Shown here: positions 11,914 to 64,000 of the stretch, in pieces
Layout of the letters: the number at the start of each line of letters is the position of its first letter
Position numbering within the stretch: the first letter of the stretch is position 1
DNA from: Phyllosticta citribraziliensis
Taxonomy: Eukaryota
Direction of reading: 5' to 3'
Assembly (NCBI RefSeq): GCF_038025025.1
Contig: NW_027117345.1
Location: 1,116,001-1,180,000 of the forward strand
Length of the DNA: 64,000 nt
The notes under the pieces: model-generated
What the model saw: the letters and a program-made list of their open reading frames with translations, nothing else
Database searches by the model: none
Told to the model about the DNA's origin: nothing
Made by a program: the position numbers and the translations under genes

Positions 11914-14375
11914 ATGTTGTCGTCGTTCGCTCGTTTTTCCGGTCTTTCCCTCTTGCTGAGCGGCGCCTCGGCCTATTCCGCCAACAGCACTGCTCAAAGT
12001 CAACTTCTTTCGTCTGGATCCAGTATGTATCTCATCTGGCGCTATGTATACTCGACTAACGAATGAATAGTCAAGCTTGGTGACTGGGAAAGCGCTTATG
12101 CTCGTGCAAAGACTTTTGTCGACGGTCTTACCGTGAACCAGAAGATCGCAGTCATCAACGGCGAGGACATTACAAACTTCACGGCACTCTACCAAAGAGA
12201 CTCTGGTGATGGCATCCTGGACTTCTTCTACGCCACGGCATGGCCGCTTTCGAGTGCCCTCGCCATGACCTGGGACCGCGACTTGTTTTACCAGCAGAAC
12301 AAAGCCCTTGCGGATGAGTTTTACGCAAAGGGAATCCAGATGGCCAAAGGCCCAGTTTCCGAGCCGCTCGGAAGAAGTCCTTGGGGTGGCAGGAACGGTG
12401 AAAGTTTCGGTCCGGACCCGTACCTCAACGGCATTGCCTTTGCAGACAATGTCAAGGCCTTTAATGATGCAGGCGTCATCTCTTGTTCCAAGCATTTCCT
12501 GCTGAATGAGCAAGAGAACAACCGCACCAGCGAGACCAGTGGTGGCGGTGGAGGTGGCGGTGCCGGCGGTCCCCCCAGCAGTTCCAACAGCTCGACCAGT
12601 TCCAGCGGTCCCAGCAGCTCCAGCAGCTCCACAACCGAGTCGGAGGCATACAACGCCATTGTCGGTGACAAGACACTCCATGAGACGTACATGTTCCCCT
12701 TCTACGACGGTATTCACGCTGGAGCGGGCGCAGTGATGTGTGCCCTTAACCGAGTCAATGAGACTTATGTAAATTGCCTCATTTCACTCTCTGACTTGAC
12801 TGGATCTCTTGCTGACTTTTGCCAAAGGCTTGCGAAAGTCAAGACCTTCTGGGTGGACTGCTCAAGGAAGAGCTTGGATTCCCTGGCCTTGTTCTCGGCG
12901 ATGTTGGTGGCCAGAAGACCGTGATAAATTCGGCCAACGCAGGTCTCGACTTTGGCTCCTTCACCAACGATTCGATGGTTGCTGGTCTCAACAACGGATC
13001 CATTTCCGAAGCTCGCCTCAACGACATGGCCATCCGCAACATTCTGCCCTCATTCAAGCTCAACCAAGACAATGGCAAGTACCCCGAAACTGCCGACCTC
13101 GAGGACTACGTGGACCCCCGCAAGCTCCACAGGAACATTGCCAGGAAGGTTGGCGCTGCCTCTCTTGTTCTCTTGAAGAATGAGAACAACGCTCTTCCGC
13201 TCAAGAGCCCAAAGACGATGGCCGTATTCGGTGCCCATGCTACTGCCAAAATTGATGGTCCCAACGATGAGCTTTCCGTCACCGGATCAGATGACGTCCT
13301 TCAGGGACACGCTGCTTCGATTGGTGGTTCGGGATACGCTTCTTTCGCATACCTTGTCACTCCTCACCATGCTCTCCTCAACCGTGTCATCGAGGATGGT
13401 ACGCAACTCAGATATCTGTTCAACGACACTGGATACTCGCAGTCCTCCAGCAGTGGAATGGGAGGAGTGTCTGGTTACAGCTCAGGTACTGCCGTCTCGC
13501 ACACATACTCCGATTTCGCCGGGTCGACTGAAGTCTGCCTCGTCTTCATCAACGCCTACTCGGGAGAGGGCGCCGATCGCGGCGAGCTGTACAACGCCGA
13601 CCAGGATGCCATGGTTGCTGAGGTGGCTTCTTCTTGCAATAACACCATTGTGGTCATCAACGCCGTTGCCGCCCGCCTGGTCGATGCCTGGATTGAAAAC
13701 GAAAACATCACCGCCGTCGTCTACGGTAGCATGCTCGGCGAGCAGAGCGGCAACAGCATTGTCGACGTTCTGTACGGCGACGTCAACCCCTCGGGCAAGC
13801 TGACCTATACGATTGCCAAGAATGAGACCGACTACAACACCGGCCTCTGCACCGGCCTGACCTGCGAGTTCACTGAGGGCAACTACATCGACTACAAGTA
13901 CTTCGACAAGGCCAACGTCACGCCGCGTTACGAATTCGGCTACGGCCTCTCCTACACGACGTTCAACTTCTCCAGCGAGCTTGCCGTCAAGAACACTGCG
14001 CCCAAGGTCCTCGCACAGAAGTACGCCACGGGTTCTCGTGCCATCGGCGGCCGCGAGGATCTGTGGACCGATGTCGTGACCGTTTCGACCCAAGTCTCCA
14101 ACACGGGCAGCGTCGCCGGCGCCGAGGTCGCCCAGCTGTACGTCTCGTTCCCCGATGCGGCCGAGCAGCCTGTCAAGGTGCTTCGCGGCTTCGAAAAGGT
14201 GCACCTCGAGCCCGGAAATAGCGCACCCGTCACATTCACCCTGCGCCGCCGCGACCTCAGCTACTGGGACGTTGCTGCGCAGAACTGGGCCGTTGCTCCC
14301 GGAACTTACACGTTCAAGGTTGGCTCGAGCAGCAGGAACATTCATGCAACTGCTACGCTGGAGATTGAGCAGTAG
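11914..14375 (+). CDS. Secreted GH3 beta-glucosidase (BglD-like), 3 exons
   Basis: Signal peptide MLSSFARFSGLSLLLSGASA; motifs GRSPWGGRNGESFGPDPYL, KHFLLNEQE, VMCALNRVN, LKEELGFPGLVLGD, SGEGADR, PSGKLTYT, YEFGYGLSYT and a C-terminal Fn3-like LRGFEKV. Introns about 12023-12070 and 12769-12828. Confidence 0.95.
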
Positions 14376-25193: not shown

Positions 25194-27033
25194 CTACAAC
25201 AACGCGCGGGCGCGCAACTGTCGCCATCCCAGGGCCACTGTTTCGTCAGCGTCCATCTACTCGTTCAAGAAGCGAGCGTGACACAAATGACAAAAATTCA
25301 ACCTACGCGAGAGGGTCAGCACTTACCAACAAACAGTAGCACCCACCGCACCAGGGCAGCCTTCTTACCTCTGGCGCCCAGCGTCAGCAGTGTCCACAGC
25401 CATGCACCCCAACCCCTCACATTGCCGTCGCGGTCAAAGTTTGCCTTGGCTCCTGACATAGAGCGGTACTGGTTCTGCTTTTGTAGCGTGTAGGGTGGGT
25501 AGCGCACAGCAAGGAACCCCTCGATCCACGACGGCGTTGTTGTCACAGAACGGCGATGCGTAAAGGTATCGAATGACGCTCGGCCCCGATACGCTCCCTG
25601 CCCACTGCTGCCAACGCCACCAAACGCCAAGGTCGGGATGGAGCCGTGGAAAAAGCCGTCGTTGACAGACGCTCCTCCAGACAAAGTCGAGTCGAGCACT
25701 AGACGGGTCAGCGTGAGCGCAAGGAAACAAGACTTGAACATACCTTTGTTTGTTTCGGCCTTGTTGCCAAAGGGGTAGATACCCAGGGGAGTGTCGTCGA
25801 CCTCATTGGCAATGCGGATAGCTTCGTCAAGGTTTTCGACGGGAAGAATGGGCATGAGTGGCCCAAAGGACTCTTCCTGAATCAGGCTGTCGTGCACACT
25901 ATCCACTTGGACGACCGTAGGCTCGAGGAACAAATCTGCTTCGTCCATGGTGCCACCAAGCAATATCTTGCCTGAGCTCTCGTCCAACATCTTCTTCAAC
26001 CGCTTGAACTGCCGCTCGTTGATGATGCGCGCATAGTCTGGGCTCTTTTGCGCGCCGTGCGGAAAGAATTCGTCATACGCCTTCTTCAGCTCCACTATGA
26101 ACAGCGGCAAAATGTCCTTATCCACCATTGTATAGTTTTGGCTTATACACACCTGGCCTGCATTGTGTACCTTGGCCCACAGCAGTCGCCGGGCAGCGAG
26201 ACGCGGGTCCGCGTGCTTCGCGAGAATGGCAGGGTTGTTGCCGCCCAGCTCCAGAGTGACTGGTGTGAGGGTCTCTGCCGCCTTCTTCGCGATTATGGTG
26301 CCGACGGCGCTATTGCCCGTGTAAAAGATCTTGTCCCATTTTTGCTCAAGCAACGCCGTGCTCTCCTTGACGCCACCTTGTACGACAGTATACGATTCGG
26401 GGTCGAGGGACTCGCGGATGACCTTCTCCATGACGGCGGCGGCGGCCGGGGCATTTTCGCTGGGCTTGAGGACAGCGGTGCATCCGGCTGAAATCGCTCC
26501 AATGAGGGGACCAAGGGACAGTTGGATGGGGAAGTTGTAGGCCCTGGTCCGGCACAGTCAGCTTGCGGCTTCAATTGGACTTGTCGCGTACTTACCCGAG
26601 CACTAGAACCGAGCCCAGGGGGTCTTTGCGGATCTTGGGGAAGACGCCCTTGTTGATGAGCGCAATATCGGGCGCGCTCTCATCTTTTGCCCATTTTGGA
26701 ATGCCTTTGGTCAAGAACAAGATGTCGTTGAGAACCCAGTTCAGCTCGGCAAGGTAGGTCTCGAAGTGAGCCTTGCCCAGGTCCTTCTTGCAAGCATCAA
26801 GGATGAGCTGCTCATTGTCCTTGAGTCTGGCGGCGGCGTGTCAGCGTGTGATGAGTAAACAGTCGGGGCGCAGGGGAGATATACCCCCAGTAGAACTTGC
26901 GTAATTGCTTGAGGCGGTATTCGATTGGACGCGTTCTTCCCGAGCGATAGGTGGTGCAGACCGCTTTCGCGGTTTCCGGGATGGCGTCGATTGGGGTGTA
27001 TTTGAGTTCGGGCCAAGCTTGCTTAGTATCCAT
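25194..27033 (-). CDS. ALDH3-family membrane-anchored aldehyde dehydrogenase (Hfd1/CarD-like), 5 exons
   Basis: LKPSE, IFYTGNSAVG, TLELGG (catalytic Glu), GQVC (catalytic Cys), EESFGP, FGGVGSSGQGAYRG and a hydrophobic C-terminus. The last exon (VALGWRQLRARALL*) is inferred from CTGAC...CAG near 25238. Confidence 0.94.
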
Positions 27034-44115: not shown

Positions 44116-46215
44116 TCAATCACTCGTCTTTTCGTCCTTTGGGATGGCCGCTTCCGCTTGCTCGACGTCGTCGCTGCTGCGGCTCGACAGCGACGCCGTG
44201 TGCTCGAGCTGCTTGGCCGCCGACGTGTTGTGCAGCCTATCCGACATGAAGATGAGATCGACCTCCTCGAGCGTGCGCCCGCGCGTCTCGGGGCAGCAAA
44301 AGTAGACTGGTGAACAGGACCGCCGTCAGCGATTCATCTCACAACACATTGGCTTTTCGCCATGCATGTTCAGAGGGAGGGAGCATTTGTCTTACCGTAC
44401 GGCCCGGCAATAATGTTAAATACCAGAAACCAGATCCACGTCTTCCAGCCAACGCTGGTGTCGGCGATGGCGATGGGACCCGCGAAGGTCGTCAAAAAGG
44501 CACTGAGCCACTGCGCGCTGACCGAGAGCGCGAAGCCGATGTGGCGGTACCGCAGCGGCATCACCTCAGAGGCGTATACGTACGGCACTGGGCCCCAAGT
44601 CGGGCCAAAGACCTGTGATCAGGAGAAGTCGTCAGTCGCCTGCTTCTGATTTCGTCCGCGCTCTGGATGGAAAGGGGTCTTACAGCGATCCAGCCAAACA
44701 GCATCGACGCGGCTGCGGCGCCCGTTTTGGCTCCCGGTGACGACATGAGACCCGTGAAAATCGCCATGAACAGCGTCTGGCCAATCGCACCGGCTGCTCC
44801 TCGTCAATAAAACTCTCCAGGGGATCAAAGCCGTTTTCTTGCGACTCACCAATCAACCAAGTGCGGCGACCAAACTTCTCCATAAACGTCACGCCCAAGA
44901 AATTCGTAATGGTCAAAACCGTCGTAGCAACAGCCGACATCGCCGACGCCACCTTAGCCGGCAAGCCAATATACGACTGAAAAATCGTCGACAGGTAATA
45001 GTAAATCATGTCGGTGCCAATCATGTAGCCGATGCCCACCAGAATCACGCCCGTCCGGATGCGCCGCGCAGCCTGCAGGTCCGACGTGTCGTAGAAAAAG
45101 TCCTTGAGGCGCAGCTCCGCCGTCGCGACCTTTTCCAGCTCAATCGAGGCTAATATGTCGCTCTTGGAGCGCGCGACGTCGCGGTCGGCCAGCGGTTTGG
45201 CGTACAGGCGTGCCAGCGTGGCGTCGCCCTCGGCTTCCTGCGAGGTCGCGTAGTAGTAGCGCGGTGTGTCGGGGTTGGGAAGAAGGAAGGCGATGGTGAC
45301 GAGAGACCATAGGACTTGGAAGGCGACGGGGAAGCGCCAAACGGCTTGCCCGCTGGCAAATGTCATGCCGAAGTCACTGAAGATGGCGTTAGCTGCGTTG
45401 CCATCTGCGGCGTGTTGGAGGTTGACTTACACCCAGTACGCCAGAGCGATGCCGCCGGCGGCGCTGCAAATCATCAGGTTCACGGCGGCACCGCGTTTGG
45501 GGACGCTGATGGCCATTTCCGCCACGTAGACTGGAATCAAGGAGGTGCAGAAGCCGTTGCCAACTCCCTAGTCTGCTGTCAGCTTTCATCCTGGATATTG
45601 ACCCTTGTGAAAGAGATCAGTGTCCGTGAAGACAATAGAGAAGGGGCAGAAAGGGCCCGAGCCTTGCTGCCAGAGGTCACGAGGCGTACGAAATGAATCC
45701 TCTCTGGGAGCTAGGATTTTCATGTCCAACCGTTGTCGAGAAATTCGATTTTGTCGTTCGTACCATGCCTTTTGGCAACAAGCCAGTCTTGCGAAACCTG
45801 CGAAAAGAAATCGAGACAAGGTGCGAGACTTACGATGAAAACGCGACCTGCAATCAATTGACCATAGCTGTAGCTGGTCGCGGATATGATGGTTCCGATG
45901 ATCTGGACAACTTCTCCAGCGATGATCCAGTTCTTCCTACCCATCTTCATGCCAAAGATAGTGATGATGATGCATCCCAGCCATGACGCCAACAGGAATG
46001 CCGACGTAATCATGGAAGTGATGGTGGTGTTGGGATACTGCAACTATTAGTTTTGGCCATGCTGTAGACAGTTTGGGACGTACGCCAACGGCCTCCAGGA
46101 AGGATGGCGTTTGCAGTACACCACCGAGAACCCCAGCGTCCCAGCCAAAGGTGACAAATCCCAGGGCTCCTGCAGTGACCGCATTCCGGTAAAGGGCATT
46201 GCCTTCGAGAACCAT
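44116..46215 (-). CDS. MFS sugar porter (hexose/polyol transporter-like), multi-exon
   Basis: FGWDAGVLGG, MGRK, LIAGRV, PVYVAEM, WRFPVAFQ, PDTPR, GRR, YASEVMPLRYR and PETRGRTLEEVD; at least 5 introns, including a long one at 45568-45833. Confidence 0.93.
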
Positions 46216-47741: not shown

Positions 47742-49515
47742 ATGGCGTCGTCTTCCCAGGAGCTCGTTGGCGGCTCTGGCATCATTTCCAAGCTGACCCT
47801 TGGAAATGTCATATTCCTGGGCCTTGCCTACCTGGCTTTCAAGCTGCTCTATCAGGTTGTGTACTACCGCTTTTTCCATCCTTTGGCCAAGTTCCCTGGC
47901 CCATTCTGGGGCTCCGTGACCAGATTATGGATCGCATACCACAACGTAGCCGAGGACGAGTGCCAGACGAACAAAGCCCTCCATGAGAAGTTTGGTAAGA
48001 GCTCCAGTACATATTCCAGGCGCAGGCTAACAGAAATCCAGGTCCTGTCATCCGCATCACCCCAACGATGTTGCTCGTCAGCGACGCAACCAAGCTCCCC
48101 GAAATTTACAACCGCAATGCCGACAAGTCGAAGCACTACATCACCGGTTCCTTTGGCAAGACGGAGAGTCTTTTCAACATGCAGGACCACAAGGTCCACT
48201 CGCGATTCCGCAAGATTGCGGCCGCGCCGTACAGCTTCAGCAACGTGAAGAAGATGGAGCCCTTGATTGACGCGCGGATGCACGACTGGATCAATAAGAT
48301 CGACAAGCTTTTTGCTCAGACCGGAGCCAAATTTGACTTTGCTCCTTGGGCAATGTAGGCGCTCCGAATGTGCGATTGAAGACGGAAGTTGACGAGTGAA
48401 CAGCTACATGGCTTATGACATCATTTCCGAGGTTGGTTTTGGCGCGCCGTTCGGTTTCATCGAGCAGGGCAAGGACGTCGAGGGTCTCATCCAAGGTTTC
48501 CACGATGGTTTGGTTCCATTTGGAATCATGGCGCGTCTTTACCCCTTCACCAACTGGGTTAAGAGCACCTGGGTTGGCGAAAAGTATCTCGTCGCGAGTC
48601 CTGAGCAAGAGTCTGGCATAGGCACGTTGATGCGCTTCCGAGACAAGCTCATTGAGCAGCGCTTCCGTGACATTGAAGAAGGAAAGTCATCTGGGCGTAT
48701 CGATCTGCTCCAAACGTAAGCGAACCAGTCCCAAAATACTGAGGCTTCGACTGACAAGAAGTCTAGATTCATCGAAGCCCGGGATGAGAACGGAAACCCG
48801 CTCGACTTGGACTACATTAAGGCCGAAATTCTTCTGGTCCTCCTCGCCGGTGCCGACACGACCGGAACGGCTTTCCAGGCCATGATGGTCCACATTATGG
48901 GATCGCCGCAGGTCTACGCCAAGCTCATGGAGGAACTGGACCGCGTAACTCGCGAGGGCAAGCTGTCGGATATGCCGCAGTACATGGAGGTGGTCGAGCA
49001 CTGCCCGTACTACGTCGCTTGTACGAAGGAGAGCATGCGCTTGAACCCGTCTGCCCCCAACATCTTCCCGCGGCTCGCCGGCCGCGGCGGCATGGAGCTC
49101 AACGGCAAATACGTCCCCGAGGGCACCGAGCTGACGTCGAACCCGTGGCTGGTTCACCGCGATCCCAACATCTTTGGCGCCGACGCCGATTCGTTCCGGC
49201 CCGAGCGCTGGTTGGAGAGCGAAGAGCGCGCCAAGGATATGAACAAGTACAGCATGGGCTTCGGGTACGGCACACGCGTCTGCCTGGGAAGGACCAGTAA
49301 GTGGCTACTCCAAACACTCAGAAGCGTCGAGATTCTGGCTGACATGACCTCTAGTCGCTGAAATGGAGCTCTACAAAGCCCCGTTGCAGTTCTTCCGCAC
49401 CTTCAAGCCGACCATTCTCAATCCGGAGCAGCCGGGCAAGTACCACGTCAAGGGTGGTGTTAGCTTCTTCTCCGACATGTGGATCAACATTGACCGCAGG
49501 CCACGGGCTGTTTGA
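47742..49515 (+). CDS. Cytochrome P450 monooxygenase (pisatin-demethylase-like group; substrate unknown), 5 exons
   Basis: N-terminal TM, HPLAKFPGP, I-helix AGADTT, ExxR (ESMR), FRPERW and heme motif FGYGTRVCLG. Introns about 47995-48041, 48354-48403, 48716-48767 and 49297-49354. Confidence 0.96.
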
Positions 49516-52048: not shown

Positions 52049-53530
52049 CTACACGGCGTGAGTGTAATAATGCCTCGACGGGTAATTGGCCTCGTCCAAA
52101 CTGCCACTGTCTCGAAGAATGTGCGGTGGAGTCTCTTCAAACTGCGTCACAATCTGGGTTCGCACTCCAATCCGTCCATCCGGCAGGTTCAGCGCCTCCT
52201 CGCTGCTGTTCGAGGCCGCGTCTTGCTCAATCTTGGTCTGGATGCCGCCTTTGTCGCGCGTGTACGGGTTGGTCGCCATACCATCCTTGTCGAGGCTCCT
52301 GAGGTGTACGCTTCCGTCGTTGGTTGACTGCCCCTTTTGACTGCCCAGATTTTGAAATGTTGCTCGAGAAGGTTGAGATGCCTTGTGATTCGTGCCGTAA
52401 CGGTCTGTCTCGTAGTACGAGCCGAGGAGGCGCGGCAGGTGACGTTTGGCAATGACTTTGAAGGATGGTATGCTTGCGGCCAATATGCCGACGTTCGTCT
52501 CGATGACGCTCCAGTACATGGCCTTTGCAATGACCCAGGTTTGATCGGTACTGGTCAGCATCTCTGGGATGAAAGTAATTCTGATTATGGAGGATATGCA
52601 TGAACTGTGCGTCTAGTCAGCGACTGTTAGGCGGTCGACGAGCGTCGCAGGCCGACTTACAAGAGTCCAAGAGAAAGCATGATGCCCAGTCCAATCTTTT
52701 GGTTGCGGGGAACTTGAAGGTGAATGACGAGTCGGACTGGCAGCGTGTAGGTCAGAATGTCCGTACTGATATTGACTGCCGCGTTTGCCAAGTAGAAGGC
52801 GTTGATGTTGATGCATTTCTTGTTCGTGATTCTTGTATCGTATGCGGCCGCGATTGGGGAGCATTCAAACAGCGCTGCAAGCGAATTGCCGGTAGCCTGG
52901 CAACCGACCAAGACAAACATGACGATGGCTAGCTTTCTCAAACTGCGGTCTCCCAGGCGCATGTAGAGGGCCAGGACACTAGTTTTGATGAATCCCAAGC
53001 ACGCATTGTAGAAGATGGAACTAAGCCACACAATCTGAAGCCCATTAGCTTCCACTTGAATTCAAGGTCGGTCGAGCAAAACTACCTTTGCGTACTGGAT
53101 GAGGTTGTCCTCTCCGCGCTTTGCGACGTCGACATAATGGCTTCTGTTAAAACAGTCAGAATGATATTCCTCGAGAACAAAGTTCCGGGAGAGGGTTCTT
53201 TGGCTTACCCTAGTCCGCGACTCACTGATAGAATGGTCGCGACAATGAAGGCCCACGACAGTAGCTGCTTGACCGTTGGCATCTGTCTCCATTCCCTCCG
53301 CATGGATTCCTTTACTTACTGCACCGATGCAAATCAAGACTTTCAGGTTTTGGGTCAGATATCGGAACAAAATTGCAAAGGTCTCCCAGCTTACCATCAT
53401 CAAGACCTAGTTTCTGTACCAGAAAGATTCGAGCGTACAGCCGCAAGCTCATCACAATCGCTGTTATGACGGCAAACACAATCGCGATGGCATTCACCGT
53501 AGGGCCTTGGCTCTCGGGCTCGGCCACCAT
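52049..53530 (-). CDS. PTH11-like (non-CFEM) fungal rhodopsin-domain integral membrane protein, about 6 exons
   Basis: LRLYARIF..LGLDD, IKTSVLALYMRL, ECSPI, NISTDILTYTLP, LGL..CISSIIR and WSVIETNVGILAASIPS; several GT-AG introns. Confidence 0.92.
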
Positions 53531-55401
53531 TGTGAAAGATAGTTCGGTAGAACAGAGGGTCTCAAATGGTTATACAGGGTTTTGAAAACCACTGTCAGAA
53601 GGCGAGCTGTATACCCCAGAGTCTATCTGGGCATCCAGCGTCGTACTGTGGGGTTACACGAGATTAGGTCCAGGCGGGTAGTAGAAGAGACGAAGGATGT
53701 GATCTCATACTGTGTCCAGCAGGTACCGAGCGACAGTAAGTTGAACAGAAGATGGAAGAAAACCAAAGTGACAGTGTGAGAGGCTTTGCATGGAAGCCAA
53801 GGATCCCCTTCCCAATAGAACATAGATGCGCATAGTCCCTGGTGACCCAGTTTCCTGGTTCCAAGTGGGCTCGTCACCCTCTCGAAAGGGCAAAGCCGCA
53901 ATGCCTCCCATGTTGACCAATGGATATTCCAAACAACATGGTGCCGTAGTTGCTTGTCATTTCGCATGCGCCAGGACCATGGACATTGAGTTTCTGAATG
54001 TCACAAAGGCTGTAGAAAATGCCAGTGCTCGTCCGCTTTTGGCCACTGTGGACTTGTGGCCGCGACAAGGGCGCCTGAAAACGATGGGGACGCATCTAGT
54101 CGCAGCTACGGGTAAATGATTCGGTCACGTCTAGGATCCGTCGTGGCGAAGGGGTTATGCAGGATGACAAAGGAGGAAAACAAGCTTGGAAACGGACATG
54201 GCATCCAATCACCTAGAGGCGGTGATCGAGCCTACTGGAAGCCTCACCCGTCATTCCGCGCTGGCCGCTGCACTCAAAGGTGGGTTTGGCATTTCGCTCT
54301 CTCCGATGGCCAGCGTCTAGACATAGTAGTCAGTCGCATGGCTGATGAGTCCTGTCCACCATACGGTGCCATTCCCGCCATGATGTCGCAAGGCTTCTCA
54401 GAATGTGCTCGGTCTTCGGCCGCAGGCGCCCTGCCTCGAAGAACTCAAAAGCTGCGTCGTCGTGCATTGTCTGCATGGTGGAGTTGAAGCCTGACGGATC
54501 ATCCTGCATCGCGATGCCCAGCCAGCATTCTCAGACATCAACTAATCCGGCGAAATAATCAGTGGGGTCTATCGCTCACGGCCGTGGGGTCCGCCAAAAG
54601 AAGGTTGCAGTCGCGCCCGTCCTCGAGCAGTGTCGGGCTTTCAAGCCATGGCAGCAGCAGAGTTGGGCCAATATTCGAGACCCAAGCCTGCGCGACTGCT
54701 GCGTCGCCGCAATCTCTCGGAGCAAAGAGCTGCAAGTAGATACAGTCCATGGCCTGGGTATTGCTCCAATCAAGGCCAGCCCCACTGGCAAAGGCGCGAG
54801 TCCGACGCGAATTCATACTGGGCGGGTGACTTGGCTTCACGACTCGCGTCGTCCGTGGGCAGACGTAAATCTTCCTCCTCCCCCCTTCACGAACTTGCGA
54901 CTGCATAGTCCCAGCGGTTGATCCTCATTACCGTGCGCAGCACAAAGCGAATGGATTCCGCTGGGGTATCCAAAAAAAGAAAGGTCTTGGAGGTTGAGAA
55001 GACTTGTCGACAGACCAGCGTCGACGCCTCTCCGGTGCTGTCATGCAAGGCCGCATGCCGCAACAGCCTCCTGGCTCAGCGCGGCCACGGACAGGCCGAT
55101 GGCGATTCTAGCGATGGGGCAGCGGTCGGCAGTTTGAAAGCAGTGGAGAAATAAAAAAAAATGGCGACGTGGGTGGCACTGCTGGTGGAGATGGGTCGAG
55201 ACAGCGGAGGCGGCGCAGACAAATGTCGGGGGTCGTTCCGCCCGGAAAACTCTAGCGAGCTTTCGGTTAATCCTGCCGAAGCAAGTGGTCCTCTGTGATT
55301 GGATGCCAGTAGCCGTCCACGAATTCTACGACCGAGTTCAAGATCTATCAATTGATACTGCCAACGTCGAAGCCATCTCCGCCTGTATTTTCAGCCTTCA
55401 G

Positions 55402-57183
55402 CTAGCCCTCTCGCACCTTTTCCAAAAACTCCGTCACAAAGCCAGCCACGATGTCTGGCTTCTCAACCATGGGCAGATGGCCCGCATGCTCAACTTCATA
55501 GTAGGCGCCCTTCCCACCACCGTACGTCTCGGCCATCTTGCGCATGCCTTTGGGCACCGCGCCGTCACCCGCACCGGCCAGGAACGCGCCGGGCACCTGG
55601 CTGCCCTTCATCTCCTCGGCGACATCATAGGCGTGCAGAGCGCGCACCACCTTCTTGAAGCCCTCGAGGCTGTTGGTCGCGACGCCGCGCTTGACCTCCT
55701 CGATGCGGCTCTCTACCTCGCCCTTGTCAAACGACTCGTCGACAAACCAACGCCTGATAGTCTCCTCGGCGAGGTTCTCGCCAATGACCTCATCCGACTC
55801 GCTCTCCGCCGACACGCTGCCCACACTTGTCCATCGCCACGGCTCTGGAATCCCCGCCGCGCCACCGTATTCGGCGGCCGTCGCACCCTGTGCTTCGGCG
55901 ACGCCCACCCGCTTGTCCCAGGCAGCTGCGTTGGTGGCCGGAGCTGCCGCGTTGGTGTCGCAGGCCACAAAGGCGGCGACACGCGATGGGTGCTTGAGAG
56001 CGAGGTTGAGGACAGACACTCCACCGAGGGAAACACCAATGGCAGCGGCTGCGCGCGGCACGCGAAGCGCGTCGAGAAGGTCGCGCATATCGTCAGCCAG
56101 AACGTCAATTGTGATTGGTTGCGTTCCTGCGGCGGCGCCACGGCCGCGGGTGTGGTACCGCAGAATACGGTAGTTCTGGTTGGCGCGTTGAGAGAGGAAC
56201 GACGCCAGGAATGCATCGTAGATGTGCCAGTCGACCATTACCGACGTGGACAGGATAATGAGAGGCGCGTTGGGGTCGGGAGAGCCCTCAAGGCGGTAGG
56301 GAAGAATGACACCATCGCGGGCCGTAATGTACGACTCGATGGCGCCAGGAGTTGTGGGAGTGGCGGGAATCTCCTTCGTGAGGCCATCCGGCGACGTGAA
56401 CGGAGCGACAGAGCCCGTCGTCAGCGAAGAGAGGTAGCGCGGCGCTGGGCCAAAGGTGTAGTAGAGCTTATAATCGCGCCTATTGAAGCTGCCAAAGAAC
56501 TGCGACTTCATTTTGTGCGTCCAAGGAGTGTCGGCGCAGGCCTTCAATTCTGGGCCTTCGACATTTTCCTGGCTGTCGAACTCGTGCAGTGCGATGTATT
56601 CCACCTCTTTGATTTTATCCTGGGGACCCAACGGCTTGACCACCGTGGAAGACTTGAATCGCCTCGTCTGGCGCCATCCAGGGACCTTGGTGAGCAGGGG
56701 AATATGCTCTTCGTTGTACCACTTGTTAAACTCCTCGGCATCTGCACCCGGCTTGAGCTTGATGATGGCGCTTAGCAAGAACGGGAGCTCTCGGCCTTCG
56801 CTCTGAATCTCCGCCGCGCTCTTGTACCCCTCCTTTTTGGTCTCGTAAATCAGGTCATACGACTTTCTATTGACGTCAATCTTCTTCATGGTTGCCGCTT
56901 CGCGCTCGCTCTTCAGCGGCGGCCCGCGCAAAGAGAGGTATGACTCGGTGTTTAGCTGGTTCAAGTCATCCACGTCGTACATGGCCATCCACTCCGGCTG
57001 CTCCTTGCTACCGCGGCTGTCTGCTGCCAGGTCAGTAGCCTTGTAGCGGAATCCGGTGAGGAAGTACGGGAAGCGGAGACGGGTCGGGCCATGCTCATTG
57101 TTGTACCAATCGTGAAATTGGTCCGAGGAGAGGTCGTTATGAGGATTCATGGTAACGTACAAGATGCCGGGGGTGGGAGCCAT
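55402..57183 (-). CDS. Fusion of two EthD-like (dimeric alpha/beta barrel) domains and an alpha/beta hydrolase of the 3-oxoadipate enol-lactonase type; probable 3-carboxymuconolactone hydrolase (ChdA-like)
   Basis: Two FxxWYNxEH motifs (FHDWYNNEH, FNKWYNEEH); hydrolase nucleophile elbow GVSLGG, GAGDG and AGHLPMVE; lies next to the cyclase and dioxygenase genes. Confidence 0.85.
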   Translation of the reverse strand: MAPTPGILYVTMNPHNDLSSDQFHDWYNNEHGPTRLRFPYFLTGFRYKATDLAADSRGSKEQPEWMAMYDVDDLNQLNTESYLSLRGPPLKSEREAATMKKIDVNRKSYDLIYETKKEGYKSAAEIQSEGRELPFLLSAIIKLKPGADAEEFNKWYNEEHIPLLTKVPGWRQTRRFKSSTVVKPLGPQDKIKEVEYIALHEFDSQENVEGPELKACADTPWTHKMKSQFFGSFNRRDYKLYYTFGPAPRYLSSLTTGSVAPFTSPDGLTKEIPATPTTPGAIESYITARDGVILPYRLEGSPDPNAPLIILSTSVMVDWHIYDAFLASFLSQRANQNYRILRYHTRGRGAAAGTQPITIDVLADDMRDLLDALRVPRAAAAIGVSLGGVSVLNLALKHPSRVAAFVACDTNAAAPATNAAAWDKRVGVAEAQGATAAEYGGAAGIPEPWRWTSVGSVSAESESDEVIGENLAEETIRRWFVDESFDKGEVESRIEEVKRGVATNSLEGFKKVVRALHAYDVAEEMKGSQVPGAFLAGAGDGAVPKGMRKMAETYGGGKGAYYEVEHAGHLPMVEKPDIVAGFVTEFLEKVREG

Positions 57184-57544
57184 GATGGGCGGGGTAGTGC
57201 AAGTAAACAGTTGACGCGGAATAAGCAAATGGGTGTCGAGAGATTTGAGAGAAGAGATTTGGAGACGGAGAGAGGCATGAATGTCGACGCAATGGCAAGA
57301 TCGCGTTCATCGCAACCGAAACGACTGCCCGGCTTACGTCTTCACGGACTCGAGCTAGAGAGCCCCGCGGCCGCCGGCAGAGGGGTCGGGTGTTGGGGTC
57401 TCCGCCACGAGGCGGGTGTGCATTCAGCCGCCGCACCGCCACTGCACTAGCTGAGCTGTTGCTTCACCGCACTCTTGTTTCACCTTCATGTGGCGCGCAG
57501 CTAAGAAACCCTCATTTGTATTTGTCTTTCTAGCTTGCATCCTT

Positions 57545-58828
57545 TCAATCGTACCAAATGGCATTCATTCCAAACCCAGGCTCCGTAACCTCACACCTCG
57601 CGACGCGCCCCAGCCAGCCCTCGGTCCAGCGATAGATCTCGATGAAGCCAACCGTGTCGTCCGTGATGGCGATATACTCATCCGTCCATGGGCACGGCGC
57701 AACGGCGTTCGAGTGTCCCCCGCTAGACGACGTGGGATTCAGCAGCAGCTGTCTCTCGATGTGGCCATTCTTGGACAACTTGAAGGCGCTTATGTATCCC
57801 GGCACCCCTATCGTGTTTGAGCGGGTCGTCGCAAACAGTGTGTCGGCGCTCTGGGTATGGAAAACGACGTCGCCCCGAAAGTTTTTGATGTTATACTTGA
57901 GGCCTGGGCTTGTGAGCTTGAGACCAAGTTTCAGAGTCTGTCGAGCTTACCTGGTGGAATGAGCGGCCACCTGCGTTGCGTGAAGACGGGCAGATGTGTC
58001 TGCTGGTCAATGACGTATTCGGCAACATTGTTACCGGCCTCCATCAACACATAGAGATAGTTTCCGCTGGGGTGTATTTCAACCCACCGCGGGTGATCTC
58101 CAGGGTCGGGGGCTTCCAAAGAGCCTAGCAAGGTCAATTGGCCTGTTTGCGGGTCCTTCTTGTGAGTCCAGATTTTGTTGGCGCGCAAGTCTGCCGAGTA
58201 CAAGTACGTCTCGGTAGGGTCAAAGACCATGCCGTGGATGCCCGTCTTTGGCTCGTACTCGTAGTTTTGGACGTTTTCCTTGAGAGCGCCATTGTCGTTG
58301 ACAGAAAAGACGTTGCCGAAGCCAGCGTAGTCGTAGAACGGATTCCCGTAGACGTTGTATGGTGGCTTCTGGGCAGCAAGGACAAAGATGGCGCGTGTGT
58401 TGGTGTCGTTGTTGGCAGCAAGCGCTGTGCAAAGAAAAAGACAAACTGATCAGGCGACGCAGAAGAGAGATTGTTGGTGGGTAAACATACGATGACCAGC
58501 AATGGGATGGGAGGCACTTTGGACAATGTCGGTGGGACTCTTAACCGTGTAGCTGGACCATGTCTTCATGGAAGCACCGTAGATTTGCTTTCTGTCGTGC
58601 TGATTTCCAAAAAGGGCACGTCAGGGACCGAAACGATGAGATCAGGAGAGACTTGCAGGGAACAGGAGAGCGGGGACTCACGCTGAACGTCATCCAGGAG
58701 ATCGGTTCATGGTGCGGGATTTCAGACCGCTTGACAAGCTTCAGGGTCAAGGCGGCGTCGTCGAATTCGAAGGTGAAGATGGCTCCGGGCCGGGTCCACG
58801 TCCCAACCATCAGGTGATGCTTTGGCAT
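57545..58828 (-). CDS. cmcA: 3-carboxy-cis,cis-muconate cyclase (fungal beta-propeller lactonizing enzyme), 4 exons
   Basis: MPKHHLMVGTWT, EPISWMTF, GIHGMVFD, DHPRWV, VLMEAGN, ATTRSN, GGHSNAVAPC and GMNAIWYD. Introns 58600-58681, 58425-58490 and 57904-57950. Confidence 0.93.
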
Positions 58829-59290
58829 CTTGGCTACGGCTGGTGAGACTGAGAGGGCGTTTTGGAGGGAGCGTGAGATTCGCATTCGCGGGAGGCTGGC
58901 GGGCAAAAGAGCATCGTGAGAAATGCATGCCGTGGCTGATACCATAGGCCAGGCTACATGTAGCAGGAAGAGACATTATCCCGGGCACGGGAGCTGCCAT
59001 CGGTTGTTGGAGGGGCCCGCTGCAGCCAATGGCAGGCCCGACGTTGTCGAGTCTGGGGGCGCCCGCGGGGCAGCAGAGTGCGGGGCGGTGCCGGCGCCCG
59101 GGATCCTCAACGGCAACCTAACCTCCAGCCTCTGGTGAACCATCAGCCGACCCATCTGCCGTTGGCCGCCCACGCTCCTCCTGTCCTCTGTATAAGATCC
59201 TGTGGCCGTCAAGATGGATCCAACTCAATCATCGCCTCCTGTCCTCTCGCACCTCGTCAATTGTACATTTCCACCATCTCCACAGTCACC
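58829..59290. promoter_or_regulatory. Divergent promoter shared by the cyclase and dioxygenase genes
   Basis: Head-to-head ATGs about 460 bp apart; GC-rich core with several CGG/CCG triplets; TATAAG near 59191. Confidence 0.65.
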
Positions 59291-60280
59291 ATGCCTTCGC
59301 CGCAAGACCGCTTCGACCCCAACTTCACCAGCAATGTCATCAACGCCATTGGTCCTGCCTGCCCGCCCAGGGCCAGGTTCGTCCTGAGCGCCATGGTCAA
59401 GCACATCCACGACTTTGCTCGCGAAGTCGAGCTGACCAACGAGGAGTGGATGGCCGGTGTGGCTTTCGTCAACGCCTGCGGACAGATGAGCAACGAGAAG
59501 AGGAACGAGACGCATCGTATTTGCGACGTCATCGGTCTTGAATCGTGAGGGACACCACCAATCATTCTTCGAACAACTCTAACATGCTTCAGCCTCGTCG
59601 ACGAAATCGCAAACAAGCACATTTCGGAAACTGGCGAAACTCCCACCTCCTCCACCATTCTCGGCCCTTTCTGGAGCCCCCGGGCTCCTTTCCGTGAGAA
59701 CGGCGCCAGCATCATCGACTGCACCCACAACGGCCATGTTGCCCTGATGCACGGCCGTGTCATCGACCTCGATACCAAGAAGCCCATCTCCAACGCCATT
59801 GTCGACATTTGGCAAGCAAGCTCAAATGGCAAATACGACTTCCAAGACCCTGAGGGCCAGACGGACATGAACCTCCGCGGAAAGTTCAGGACAAACGAGA
59901 AGGGCGAATATCACTACTACTGCTTGAAGCCTACTGCCTACTCGCTGCCGACTGACGGTAAGTTACTGCCTTGAAATGGTAACCTGGACAGGCGCTAATT
60001 GTGCAAAGGCCCCGCCGGCGTTCTCCTCCGTCTCTTTGACCGCAGCCCTTGGAGGCCCGCACACATCCACCTGATGGTCAGCCACCCCGACTACAAGCCC
60101 GTCGTCACCCAGCTCTACCCCGACGACGACCCGCACTTGGTCGACGACTCGGTGTTTGCAGTCAAGGACGACCTCGTCGTCTCTTTCAAGCCGCGCGAGA
60201 ACGACCCCAAGGCCGAGCTGGATCTCGAGTACAACGTCACGCTGGCACCAAAGGATGCATCAGCAAAGTCGCAATTGTAG
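59291..60280 (+). CDS. prcA: Intradiol ring-cleavage dioxygenase, most like fungal protocatechuate 3,4-dioxygenase, 3 exons
   Basis: [44 protein letters not shown]; iron ligands GKYD (Tyr), PTAYSLP (Tyr) and RPAHIH (2 His). Introns 59545-59592 and 59958-60008. Confidence 0.9.
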
Positions 60281-60987
60281 ACGTGGAAGCATCTGCAACT
60301 GTTTTGAATTTGGGCGTTTTGTTGGATCTGTGAATATTCTCCTGGGATAGGTCTTGTATACGCGCCGCATGAAGCGCTTTGAATGAATTAGCCATGATCA
60401 ACCACAACTGCATTTTGGATTTGATCGTGTGTGATGTGGTTGGTTGAACGCTTTCGCCAGGGGGTATTCAATGGCAGCAGATCAATGCGCGCCATGCTCT
60501 TGCTCTGGTCAGATTATCTGGAAAAGCCTTTTGCCGCGCACAGGTGCCGCGATTCGAGCTCCTGTGCGGACCCCTAGCGCCGCAACAGTGTCCCTGCAGC
60601 TGGTCATGGGTGCCCCGCAGTGTGCCCCGCCTTGGGATCTGTTGGTTAAAAAGTTGAGCTGCGGTGCCTGAGCTCGACAACTTGAGCACACGACACGCAA
60701 CACTGCCGTTGCGAGATCCCGAAATCAATCGTCAACGGGGACATTCGGATTCGTTTTGCGCGTTCAATTGGAGCATATCTGGCGTATTCCGGCGAGAAGT
60801 GATCCCTCCATTAACTCCTTTGCTGGCGAGGTGACACTGACACTTCTCATTGCTGAGCAGAGCGCTTCGGTCAGCCGTTAGCTATTCGAACCGAATCAAG
60901 GCTCCTGCTCACCCCTTGCTCACCCCCATCCTCTTTTCCCTTGCACAACAAAGCAAGAAGGCAATAACGACGACCAAGCCAGCCAAA

Positions 60988-61590
60988 ATGCGCCTCCCCT
61001 ACGCGCCGTCCACACCCCCACCCTCCTCGCCCGCATCGACGCAAGAAATCTACGCGCGCATCGCCGAGCGCCGGCACCCACGCCCGCTCATCCCGCTCGA
61101 CCTGGCGCTGCTGCACTCGCCGCCGCTGGCCGACGGGTGGAACCACTTCCTCGGCGCCATCCGCAGCGCGACGACGCTGTCAGACGCACACTTGGAGCTG
61201 GCCGTGGCGCGCGTGGGCGCTCTGACGGGAGCGGTGTGGGAGTGGCGGGCGCACGCGCGACTCGCGGCGCTGGCGGGCGTGCGGAGGGCGGCGCTGGAGT
61301 GGGTTTTGAAGGGTGAAGGGGTGGATGGGCTGGTTGGCAAGGAGGTCGAGGGGTTGGGGGAGAAGGAGAGGGCGGTGCTTGCGCTTACAGATGAGGTTGT
61401 TAGGTTGGGGGGTGGGAAGGGTGTGAATGATGAGGTATGGGAGGAGTTGAGGAGGTGGTTCGATGATAGGCAGTGTGTCGAGTTGACGGTGGCAGTGAGC
61501 GCGTATTGTTGTGTCAGTCGTGTGCTGTTGACGCTGGATATCGGTGAGTGTAATGGACAGCCGATGGAGGTGCCAGCAGAGGCGACGTAG
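60988..61590 (+). CDS. AhpD-like / carboxymuconolactone decarboxylase-fold protein
   Basis: MRLPY, PLDLALLHSPPLADGWNHFLGAIR, ELAVARVG, EWRAH and VELTVAVSAYCCVSR; no AhpD CxxC motif. Confidence 0.88.
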   Translation: MRLPYAPSTPPPSSPASTQEIYARIAERRHPRPLIPLDLALLHSPPLADGWNHFLGAIRSATTLSDAHLELAVARVGALTGAVWEWRAHARLAALAGVRRAALEWVLKGEGVDGLVGKEVEGLGEKERAVLALTDEVVRLGGGKGVNDEVWEELRRWFDDRQCVELTVAVSAYCCVSRVLLTLDIGECNGQPMEVPAEAT

Positions 61591-63404: not shown

Positions 63405-64000
63405 TTAGTGCTGCGGAACCGACAGCTCAGCGCCTGCCTTCTCATCCTCAATCTCGCTGACCTCCTCCTCGGACGCCTCCTCGGACGCAGCAGTGCTCTG
63501 CGCAAGCTTGGACCTGGCACGAATGGCAGGGCCGTACTTGTACACGACGAAGGGGATGAACGTCAACAGGACGGCAACGAGCGAGAGCAAAAGGCCAGCC
63601 CACTGCGAACCCAGGTTGTGGAAGAACTGAGATCCGAACAGCGGCGACACGGCACCGAGAGTGTTACGCATAAGACCCTACCAAAGTCAGCAATTGTGTC
63701 ATGAGTCGGAAAACAAGGCTCAGCTTACCTGTCCAGCAATGGCAGACGAAGAGTTGGTGCCGTAGCAGTCGGCAGTGAAGGAGTAGCACGACTCAAAGAT
63801 GAAGAAGATGCCAATGGCAATGAGTGCCAGGCCAACGACGGGACCCATCCAGTGGACGAACGCGTACTGCGTGTACGTGTAGATGAAAAGACCGATCGGA
63901 AGGAAGGGCGCGCCGAAGAGAGCACCATACAGACGGGCCTCGGGCTCGACCTGGCCGTTGTTCGCCTTGACGAGAGCCTCGTACCTCTTGATCTGGAAGA
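63405..64000 (-). CDS. MFS transporter (DHA1 type), 3' part only; 5' end lies outside the window
   Basis: VEPEARL, YTADCYG..SSSAIAG, intron about 63679-63729, then RNTLGAVSPLFG..LG.QWA and IPFVVYKYGPAIRARSK. Confidence 0.9.

Follow-up and report, generated by a model that had tools for sequence, protein, structure and literature searches.

A cysteine-less AhpD-fold protein of the fungal protocatechuate cluster in Phyllosticta citribraziliensis as a candidate last-step decarboxylase

Introduction

A 64,000-nucleotide stretch of the Phyllosticta citribraziliensis genome (NCBI RefSeq assembly GCF_038025025.1, contig NW_027117345.1, positions 1,116,001 to 1,180,000 of the forward strand; hereafter the window) carries at 55402-61590 four intact protein-coding genes, chdA, cmcA, prcA and a carboxymuconolactone decarboxylase (CMD)/AhpD-fold gene (gene 4), that almost certainly form a protocatechuate-degradation cluster of the known fungal type (Table 1). 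The cluster itself is ordinary, an instance of a known and widespread fungal arrangement rather than a new one. The role of the CMD gene is a stated open question in PMC10406623, repeated in a 2025 review (PMC12388069). Judged from sequence and predicted structure, we slightly favor the view that the CMD protein acts as the decarboxylase at the last step toward beta-ketoadipate. Both the cluster and an isomerase/hydrolase/decarboxylase reading of it are already published in FAMeDB (PMC13094099), and a literature search returned no paper combining carboxymuconolactone decarboxylase, ketoadipate and Dothideomycetes.

Sequence and published genetics of the CMD protein

Two induced CMD-like genes of Aspergillus niger, NRRL3_08340 and NRRL3_00837, were tested by Sgro et al. 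2023 (PMC10406623). The first resembles PcaC and is dispensable, whereas NRRL3_00837 is induced ~48-fold and, once deleted, leaves the fungus unable to grow on protocatechuate or quinate, a phenotype more severe than that of chdA deletion (PMC10406623). The same article cites AN5232 of A. nidulans as likewise required for growth on protocatechuate, its deletion having accumulated intermediates up to the lactone.

By sequence comparison, gene 4 is the orthologue of NRRL3_00837, AN5232 and A. fumigatus AFUA_6G11590, and not of NRRL3_08340. Hand translation of the NRRL3_00837 primers and oligonucleotide gives MSLPYA and FLGAIRTQTI...LLELAVCRV, against MRLPYA and FLGAIRSATT...HLELAVARV in gene 4, and the Aspergillus homologue P0028 nearly matches the NRRL3_00837 oligonucleotide sequence. 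The NRRL3_08340 oligonucleotide encodes LHETLFDEG and does not resemble gene 4. Identity of gene 4 is 92% to its closest homologue and 57% to the Af293 protein of A. fumigatus that bears the product name of AFUA_6G11590, a gene listed as the AN5232 orthologue in FAMeDB (PMC13094099). In a quick tree of 93 rows, which carries long-branch warnings for its basidiomycete and bacterial rows, gene 4 groups with the Aspergillus homologues and most cluster-linked loci, and an unlinked paralogue on another contig falls in a different clade (Shimodaira-Hasegawa-like approximate likelihood-ratio support 91). This paralogue, of the same CMD family (L003:1052-1686; C13 ~490736-491370, minus strand), encodes 197 aa with one intron, keeps all of the conserved charged residues described below, and is flanked, judged by eye, by transporter-like and methyltransferase-like genes; it may be a backup for gene 4 or belong to a different pathway.

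A preliminary description of the locus, made from the sequence alone, had regarded the CMD gene as an extra member of the cluster and the fungal route as one that needs no CMD protein. Neither view is supported. In Aspergillus the orthologue is already known as indispensable to the pathway, and its loss stops growth on protocatechuate and quinate, rather than leaving aromatic catabolism without a phenotype, and FAMeDB, citing Martins et al. 2015 and 2019, names AN5232 and NRRL3_00837 '3-carboxymuconolactone decarboxylase' (PMC13094099). The further suggestion that the protein has a step still to be demonstrated is supported: the orthologue is essential yet inactive in the published assays, and the 2025 review still lists NRRL3_00837 as unknown (PMC12388069).

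Predicted structure and conserved residues

Gene 4 matches Pfam family PF02627 at E 4.8e-5, just over the cut-off. Its predicted structure (predicted local distance difference test score, pLDDT, 95) adopts an AhpD/CMD-like helical fold with matches at Z 15.9-17.7. The AhpD-core proteins PA0269, Atu0492, SMU.961 and Bmp8 have the same fold and the same proton-relay Glu and His as gene 4, which differs in lacking their redox cysteines. The CxxC motif of PA0269 (CAYC) aligns to AVYE/AVWE in the family; gene 4 reads A82-V-W-E85, followed by H89, so that the redox CxxC is absent, and no cysteine is conserved across the homologue alignment. The Glu and His of the AhpD proton relay are kept as E70 and H89.

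These two residues are part of a larger invariant set (R28, R29, D38, R59, E70, W86, H89 and E165) found in all 82 ascomycete and all four basidiomycete rows of the alignment. E85 is present in 82/82 ascomycete and 3/4 basidiomycete rows, and R75 is also among the conserved residues. The invariant charged residues would suit the binding of a polycarboxylate beside an acid/base pair. Gene 4, like its nearest relatives P0001, P0002 and P0008, has Cys at residue 174, changing YNCVSR to YCCVSR at a position where the family has a nearly invariant Asn; gene 4 also differs from NRRL3_00837 in mass (21.7 kDa against a predicted 25.5 kDa).

Linkage and domain fusions across fungi

The genomic context of the family was surveyed in the best 80 of 272 metagenome loci, which clustering at 90% identity reduces to 55 groups. 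Upstream sequence reaches 6.5 kb or more in 26 of these, treated as informative, and is shorter in the other 29. All four genes occur in identical order and orientation in nine of the 26 informative groups, and chdA, cmcA and the CMD gene occur without prcA in three more. Part of the cluster is also seen in 8 of the 29 shorter groups. Several of the full four-gene loci are closely related, and the nine should not be counted as nine independent events. The linkage of the CMD gene noted in the preliminary description is conserved among fungi, beyond what chance would give.

In the three-gene loci, prcA does not lie between cmcA and the CMD gene. Their form is like the A. fumigatus numbering, where the hydrolase, cyclase and CMD genes (AFUA_6G11570/11580/11590), three of the four, have consecutive locus numbers (PMC13094099). 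A. niger (NRRL3_01405, 02586, 01409 and 00837; PMC10406623) and A. nidulans (AN8566, AN1151, AN10520 and AN5232) have the same four genes by motif, domain layout and oligonucleotides, but the A. niger gene numbers are scattered except for prcA and chdA, whereas all four genes are adjacent in Phyllosticta. Protocatechuate genes are described as unclustered in A. nidulans and Scedosporium (PMC8283699), and a cyclase gene beside the dioxygenase gene has been noted in Ceratocystidaceae (PMC8896014).

Domain fusions extend this association to basidiomycetes. Proteins of Rhodotorula (P0238, E 1.6e-47), Tilletia, Schizophyllum and a Ganoderma cluster join a CMD domain to a hydrolase, and a gene 4 profile matches them at the N-terminus; the Rhodotorula protein is 34% identical to gene 4 and 28% identical to the ChdA hydrolase. 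The same five domains are adjacent and co-induced in R. toruloides (RTO4_12620-12623/RHTO_05019-05022) and occur likewise in Pleurotus (PMC7873862; PMC13094099, citing Martins et al. 2019). In basidiomycetes, however, the CMD domain is fused to the hydrolase and the barrel is a free-standing protein, whereas in Phyllosticta it is the barrel that is joined to the hydrolase, and the CMD protein is separate. From cluster evidence only, FAMeDB labels RHTO_05019 a decarboxylase/hydrolase; to RHTO_05020, in which it sees homology with the N-terminal part of the ascomycete hydrolase, it gives the label of putative isomerase on the same kind of evidence (PMC13094099). Because of this conserved linkage and these reciprocal fusions, we place the CMD gene, provisionally, at the conversion of lactone to beta-ketoadipate.

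That the basidiomycete fusions carry a PcaC-type domain was considered and rejected, since the fused domain belongs to the gene 4 family by profile match. Two records that join dioxygenase, CMD and acyl-CoA dehydrogenase (P0121 and P0123) were taken as merged gene models and support adjacency only. A bacterial member of the gene 4 family, P0226, is a double-hydrolase and CMD fusion. Bacterial PcaC/PcaD pairs and PcaCD/PcaDC fusions likewise bring a CMD fold together with a PcaD-type enol-lactone hydrolase. In bacteria, 4-carboxymuconolactone is decarboxylated before hydrolysis and an isomerase is not needed.

The dioxygenase, the cyclase and ChdA

Gene 3 matches PF04444 and PF00775 and contains Y166, Y201, H225 and H227, the iron ligands of this enzyme family. 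By its sequence motif, gene 3 is of the PrcA type and not of the catechol or hydroxyquinol type, because the motif fits a gene-editing oligonucleotide for A. niger prcA (NRRL3_01405; PMC10406623), translated by hand, unlike the motifs of the two further intradiol dioxygenases that a Pfam search found in the genome. The oligonucleotide translation is letter-for-letter identical in the cluster-linked dioxygenase of locus L048. The motif was readable in 16 of 23 linked metagenome loci scanned, as NE[A/C]HR in 14 and NEGQR in two. The two other enzymes read RNEGQLVCDV and RQEYILLSD, and presumably belong to the catechol or hydroxyquinol classes. The A. niger PrcA has been demonstrated to cleave protocatechuate and not catechol (PMC10406623).

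Exons 3 and 4 of gene 2 match Neurospora CMLE (1JOF) at E 1.9e-75 and 5.3e-41. The predicted seven-bladed propeller, nearest to 1JOF, carries H148, R196, E212 and R274, presumably the catalytic residues of CmcA/CMLE (EC 5.5.1.5). A second, unlinked cyclase-like beta-propeller gene (L172:1046-2160; C9 ~1581631-1582071, minus strand) is 44% identical over exon 3; R. toruloides likewise has a second cyclase, without a phenotype.

ChdA (65 kDa) combines a tandem dimeric alpha-beta barrel (EthD-like, approximately residues 1-246) with a PcaD-like alpha/beta hydrolase, and the start and an internal oligonucleotide of NRRL3_01409, translated by hand, match gene 1. The C-terminal half lies nearest to the enol-lactonase PcaD (TIGR02427, E 1.8e-36, below the cut-off; 2XUA, E 3.7e-24) and has a triad of Ser385 (in GVSLGG), Asp540 and His569. 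The AlphaFold model of the N-terminal 250 residues (pLDDT 91) matches tandem dimeric alpha+beta barrels at Z 15.5-18.1, and FAMeDB lists IPR011008 for ChdA (PMC13094099). The PrcA-type, CmcA and ChdA identities proposed in the preliminary description are thus supported by domains, by the 1JOF match and by oligonucleotide-derived motifs, and its dioxygenase does not side with the catechol or hydroxyquinol enzymes.

A possible late decarboxylation

Activities of PrcA and CmcA, and consumption of the lactone by ChdA, have been demonstrated for the A. niger proteins (PMC10406623). By orthology, the Phyllosticta PrcA would cleave protocatechuate and CmcA would yield 3-carboxymuconolactone. The carboxyl group of this lactone sits on a vinylic carbon, and from the chemistry we infer that isomerization and then hydrolysis would have to precede decarboxylation. 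The ChdA barrel may shift the double bond to give the carboxy-enol-lactone, which the PcaD-like domain would then hydrolyze to 4-carboxy-3-oxoadipate, if the two activities are divided between the domains in this way. Finally, the CMD protein would strip the branch carboxyl from 4-carboxy-3-oxoadipate, or from the enol-lactone just before, presumably using the E-x3-H acid/base pair and several arginines instead of the AhpD cysteines. The path from lactone to beta-ketoadipate would thus take three domains, which Dikarya keep together in two fusion layouts. A fitness of -4.0 and -2.6 for R. toruloides 12620 appears in two columns of PMC7873862 that we take, by analogy, as coumarate and ferulate. 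Among the literature consulted, 4-carboxy-3-oxoadipate was not found as a reported metabolite, and the searches made found no beta-keto-acid decarboxylation assigned to the AhpD fold.

Several observations weigh against this assignment. Purified ChdA, PrcA and CmcA gave beta-ketoadipate by nuclear magnetic resonance (NMR) with or without NRRL3_00837, which did not change the rate; liquid chromatography-mass spectrometry (LC-MS) of the NRRL3_00837 mutant found no intermediate; and a 54-kDa bifunctional enzyme is cited (all PMC10406623). Gene 4 matched no family when compared with NCBIfam at E 0.001, and so does not match the bacterial PcaC model; its nearest structures are uncharacterized AhpD-core proteins and Bmp8, with CMD-labelled entries lower (Z 11.9 and 10.7), and its link to A. 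niger rests on short published oligonucleotides. The listed structure matches of the ChdA barrel include no muconolactone isomerase (CatC) or MmlI-type entry, and the tandem barrel fold also includes oxygenases and a decarboxylase, so that an isomerase function is not fixed by the fold. No linked cluster gene was seen in 14 of the 26 informative groups; in the quick tree eight of these fall in the 37-row clade with the paralogue, five in the gene 4 clade, and one is unplaced. Finally, no pca genes were among the 10 neighbor families scanned at betaproteobacterial loci. Around the betaproteobacterial relative P0132, for which 80 loci were retrieved, the neighbors met most often are short-chain dehydrogenases/reductases (72 loci, a broad family), followed by threonate-dehydrogenase-like (27), efflux (25) and sulfomuconolactone-hydrolase-like (12) genes. 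Betaproteobacterial members adjoin dehydrogenases, aldolases and a lactone-hydrolase-like gene, a context that hints at an uncharacterized acid-catabolic route.

The in vitro result may nevertheless reflect how the assays were made. The primer used for NRRL3_00837 encodes Ser, which may or may not be native, at the position of Arg2, a residue present in 81 of 82 ascomycete rows. The vector pLATE52 supplies an N-terminal His tag. Alone among the three newly cloned enzymes, NRRL3_00837 was expressed from pLATE52 and purified by His-trap; ChdA and CmcA were in pLATE11 (PMC10406623). The assays tracked absorbance at 290, 260 and 230 nm, and NMR samples were taken after 6 M HCl and solvent extraction (PMC10406623). 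A late decarboxylation would be invisible under these conditions, because the ultraviolet (UV) chromophore would already have been lost and any beta-keto acid would lose its carboxyl chemically during acid work-up. In living cells, decarboxylation catalyzed by the CMD protein would be needed. A composite account, plausible but short of probable, would split the textbook single-enzyme conversion of 3-carboxymuconolactone into three reactions on three domains, with ChdA as an isomerase-hydrolase, rather than a decarboxylase, that releases 4-carboxy-3-oxoadipate, the cysteine-less CMD protein as a metal-free beta-keto-acid decarboxylase, the essential-but-inactive paradox of NRRL3_00837 as an artefact of UV detection and acid work-up, and a shared CGG-N10-CGG site for a Zn2Cys6 activator that may serve all four genes.

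Alternative explanations

Sgro et al. themselves proposed that the ChdA barrel is the decarboxylase and the CMD protein a FapR-like regulator (PMC10406623). If ChdA alone makes beta-ketoadipate, the CMD protein could instead act in repair, removing a by-product that is toxic or leads nowhere: a cis,trans isomer, for example, 4-carboxymuconolactone formed non-enzymatically, or the lactone in its wrong enantiomeric form. We consider this unlikely but credible. It agrees with the sufficiency of ChdA in vitro (PMC10406623) and with the harsher effect of deleting the CMD gene than chdA, as expected of a poison, and carboxymuconate does lactonize without enzyme to racemic 3-carboxymuconolactone (PMC10406623; PMC12771582). 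That reaction requires acid, however (PMC12771582), no by-product was detected in the mutant (PMC10406623), and fusion of CMD to hydrolase in four basidiomycete lineages suggests consecutive steps rather than repair. A regulatory or scaffolding role, with the CMD protein as a non-catalytic helper, accounts for its inactivity in every published assay and for the FapR hit of the published structure search (PMC10406623), but it sits poorly with the invariant charged residues at AhpD active-site positions, with the confident model that matches AhpD/CMD folds, and with a domain that lacks any DNA-binding part and is fused to an enzyme in basidiomycetes; we regard it as quite improbable. FapR is not among the listed structure matches of the model, and the top ones are all AhpD/CMD.

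The same decarboxylase chemistry might instead be mainly mitochondrial, with the tricarboxylate imported and decarboxylated beside the coenzyme A transferase KstA by an N-terminally extended isoform. WoLF PSORT predicts R. toruloides 12620 to be mitochondrial (PMC7873862), and 32 of 120 listed homologues have an ATG-started extension of at least 12 residues that is Arg-rich and acid-poor (24 of the 32 without D or E). The other 88 have no such annotated extension, the fusions P0238, P0224 and P0282 begin at the CMD domain or a few residues away, translated pyrimidine-rich leaders can imitate this composition, and the spliced leader of gene 4 has no in-frame ATG; this location is therefore improbable. 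A stretch upstream of gene 4 that looked like a mitochondrial presequence was discarded, being partly intron and having no in-frame ATG. The preliminary description had suggested that the CMD protein handles substituted lactones or gallate-derived intermediates. CMD-fold proteins are diverse, and the unlinked paralogue could play such a role, but loss of the orthologue already stops growth on plain protocatechuate and quinate (PMC10406623), and gallate is catabolized by a separate route that does not need the protocatechuate branch (bioRxiv 10.1101/2023.06.06.543907), leaving this idea very improbable. Hardly credible is an AhpD-type thiol reductase shielding the iron dioxygenase from oxidative damage: the fold and the adjoining dioxygenase gene would suit it, and the replacement of CxxC in a family with no shared cysteine largely refutes it.

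Gene models, candidate regulatory sites and neighboring genes

The genes are separated by 361, 462 and 707 bp (genes 1/2, 2/3 and 3/4), in agreement with the close packing first described. The layout, given there as two divergent pairs around one promoter, is better put as two tandem pairs that diverge from a single 462-bp region; since the outer genes have their own upstream regions, one promoter for all four is conjectural. All five coding introns are seen as joints in public contigs of run X1, whose RNA status is a guess, and all are joined too in RNA run X7, from a related strain or species. The spliced leader of gene 4 is open for 80 codons in frame, with near-cognate starts only. One X1 contig (60008-61656) continues from the final prcA exon across the intergenic stretch to the CMD gene and lacks the introns; it may represent read-through or overlapping untranslated regions, between which the contig cannot tell.

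Table 1. Features of the protocatechuate cluster (window positions).
Feature	Position	Strand	Description
chdA orthologue (gene 1)	57183..55402	-	593 aa, intronless; EthD and alpha/beta hydrolase by Pfam
Putative 3-carboxymuconolactone isomerase (ChdA barrel domain)	56434..57183	-	AlphaFold model and fold matches; FAMeDB label of RHTO_05020
Candidate Zn2Cys6 site, CGG-N10-CGG upstream of chdA	57316..57331	-	Post hoc pattern; suggestive
cmcA (gene 2)	58828..57545	-	Four exons, 362 aa; Neurospora CMLE 1JOF is the best PDB match
Divergent cmcA/prcA promoter region	58829..59290	.	462 bp; CGG-N10-CGG at 58988-59003 and 59086-59101
prcA (gene 3)	59291..60280	+	Exons 59291-59544, 59593-59957 and 60009-60280; 296 aa; Dioxygenase_N/C
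CGG-N10-CGG, two copies upstream of CMD gene	60534-60549, 60706-60721	-	Post hoc pattern; suggestive
5'-leader intron of CMD gene	60799..60860	+	Joint in one run X1 contig
CMD/AhpD-fold gene (gene 4)	60988..61590	+	200 aa; PF02627 match

Co-regulation, also proposed in the preliminary description, is borne out for the orthologues: those of A. niger are induced 45-2200-fold on protocatechuate (PMC10406623), and R. toruloides 12620-12623, five domains side by side, are all induced on coumarate (PMC7873862). The pattern CGG-N10-CGG is present in 10 of 12 divergent regions, 11 of 13 regions upstream of chdA and 7 of 15 upstream of the CMD gene, against means of 3.8, 3.1 and 3.4 in random same-length stretches of the same loci, where 0, 0 and 6 of 300 draws were as high. 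The N11 spacing is not enriched and N9 is enriched in the divergent region only, while the narrower CGG-N8-WTCGG is enriched upstream of chdA only (8/13, against 1/12 and 0/15 elsewhere). The pattern was picked post hoc from 48 dyads, the control was not promoter-matched and the loci are related, so that a shared Zn2Cys6 activator site is suggestive and a lead only.

A major facilitator superfamily transporter gene (PF07690) adjoins the cluster on the right (window 63405-64000, continuing in L169:1-1368, minus strand), and a fungal rhodopsin-domain gene lies on the left (52049-53569). Farther left, at 6-30 kb from the cluster, are an aldehyde dehydrogenase, a sugar transporter and a cytochrome P450 exon (25319-26557, 44683-45426 and 48720-49358). 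A gene ~7.5-9 kb beyond the window end (L169:7483-9091, minus strand) resembles, by eye, a secreted intradiol dioxygenase, with GPYY and DIWNAN motifs and a signal peptide; a Pfam scan of two exons was negative at 1e-5.

Implications

The published methods show how a late decarboxylation could have escaped detection. If the CMD protein does act as the decarboxylase, this reading would call for a corrected map of the fungal pathway and another name for ChdA, and would add a reaction to those of the AhpD fold. It would also bear on the engineering of fungi that convert lignin aromatics to beta-ketoadipate.

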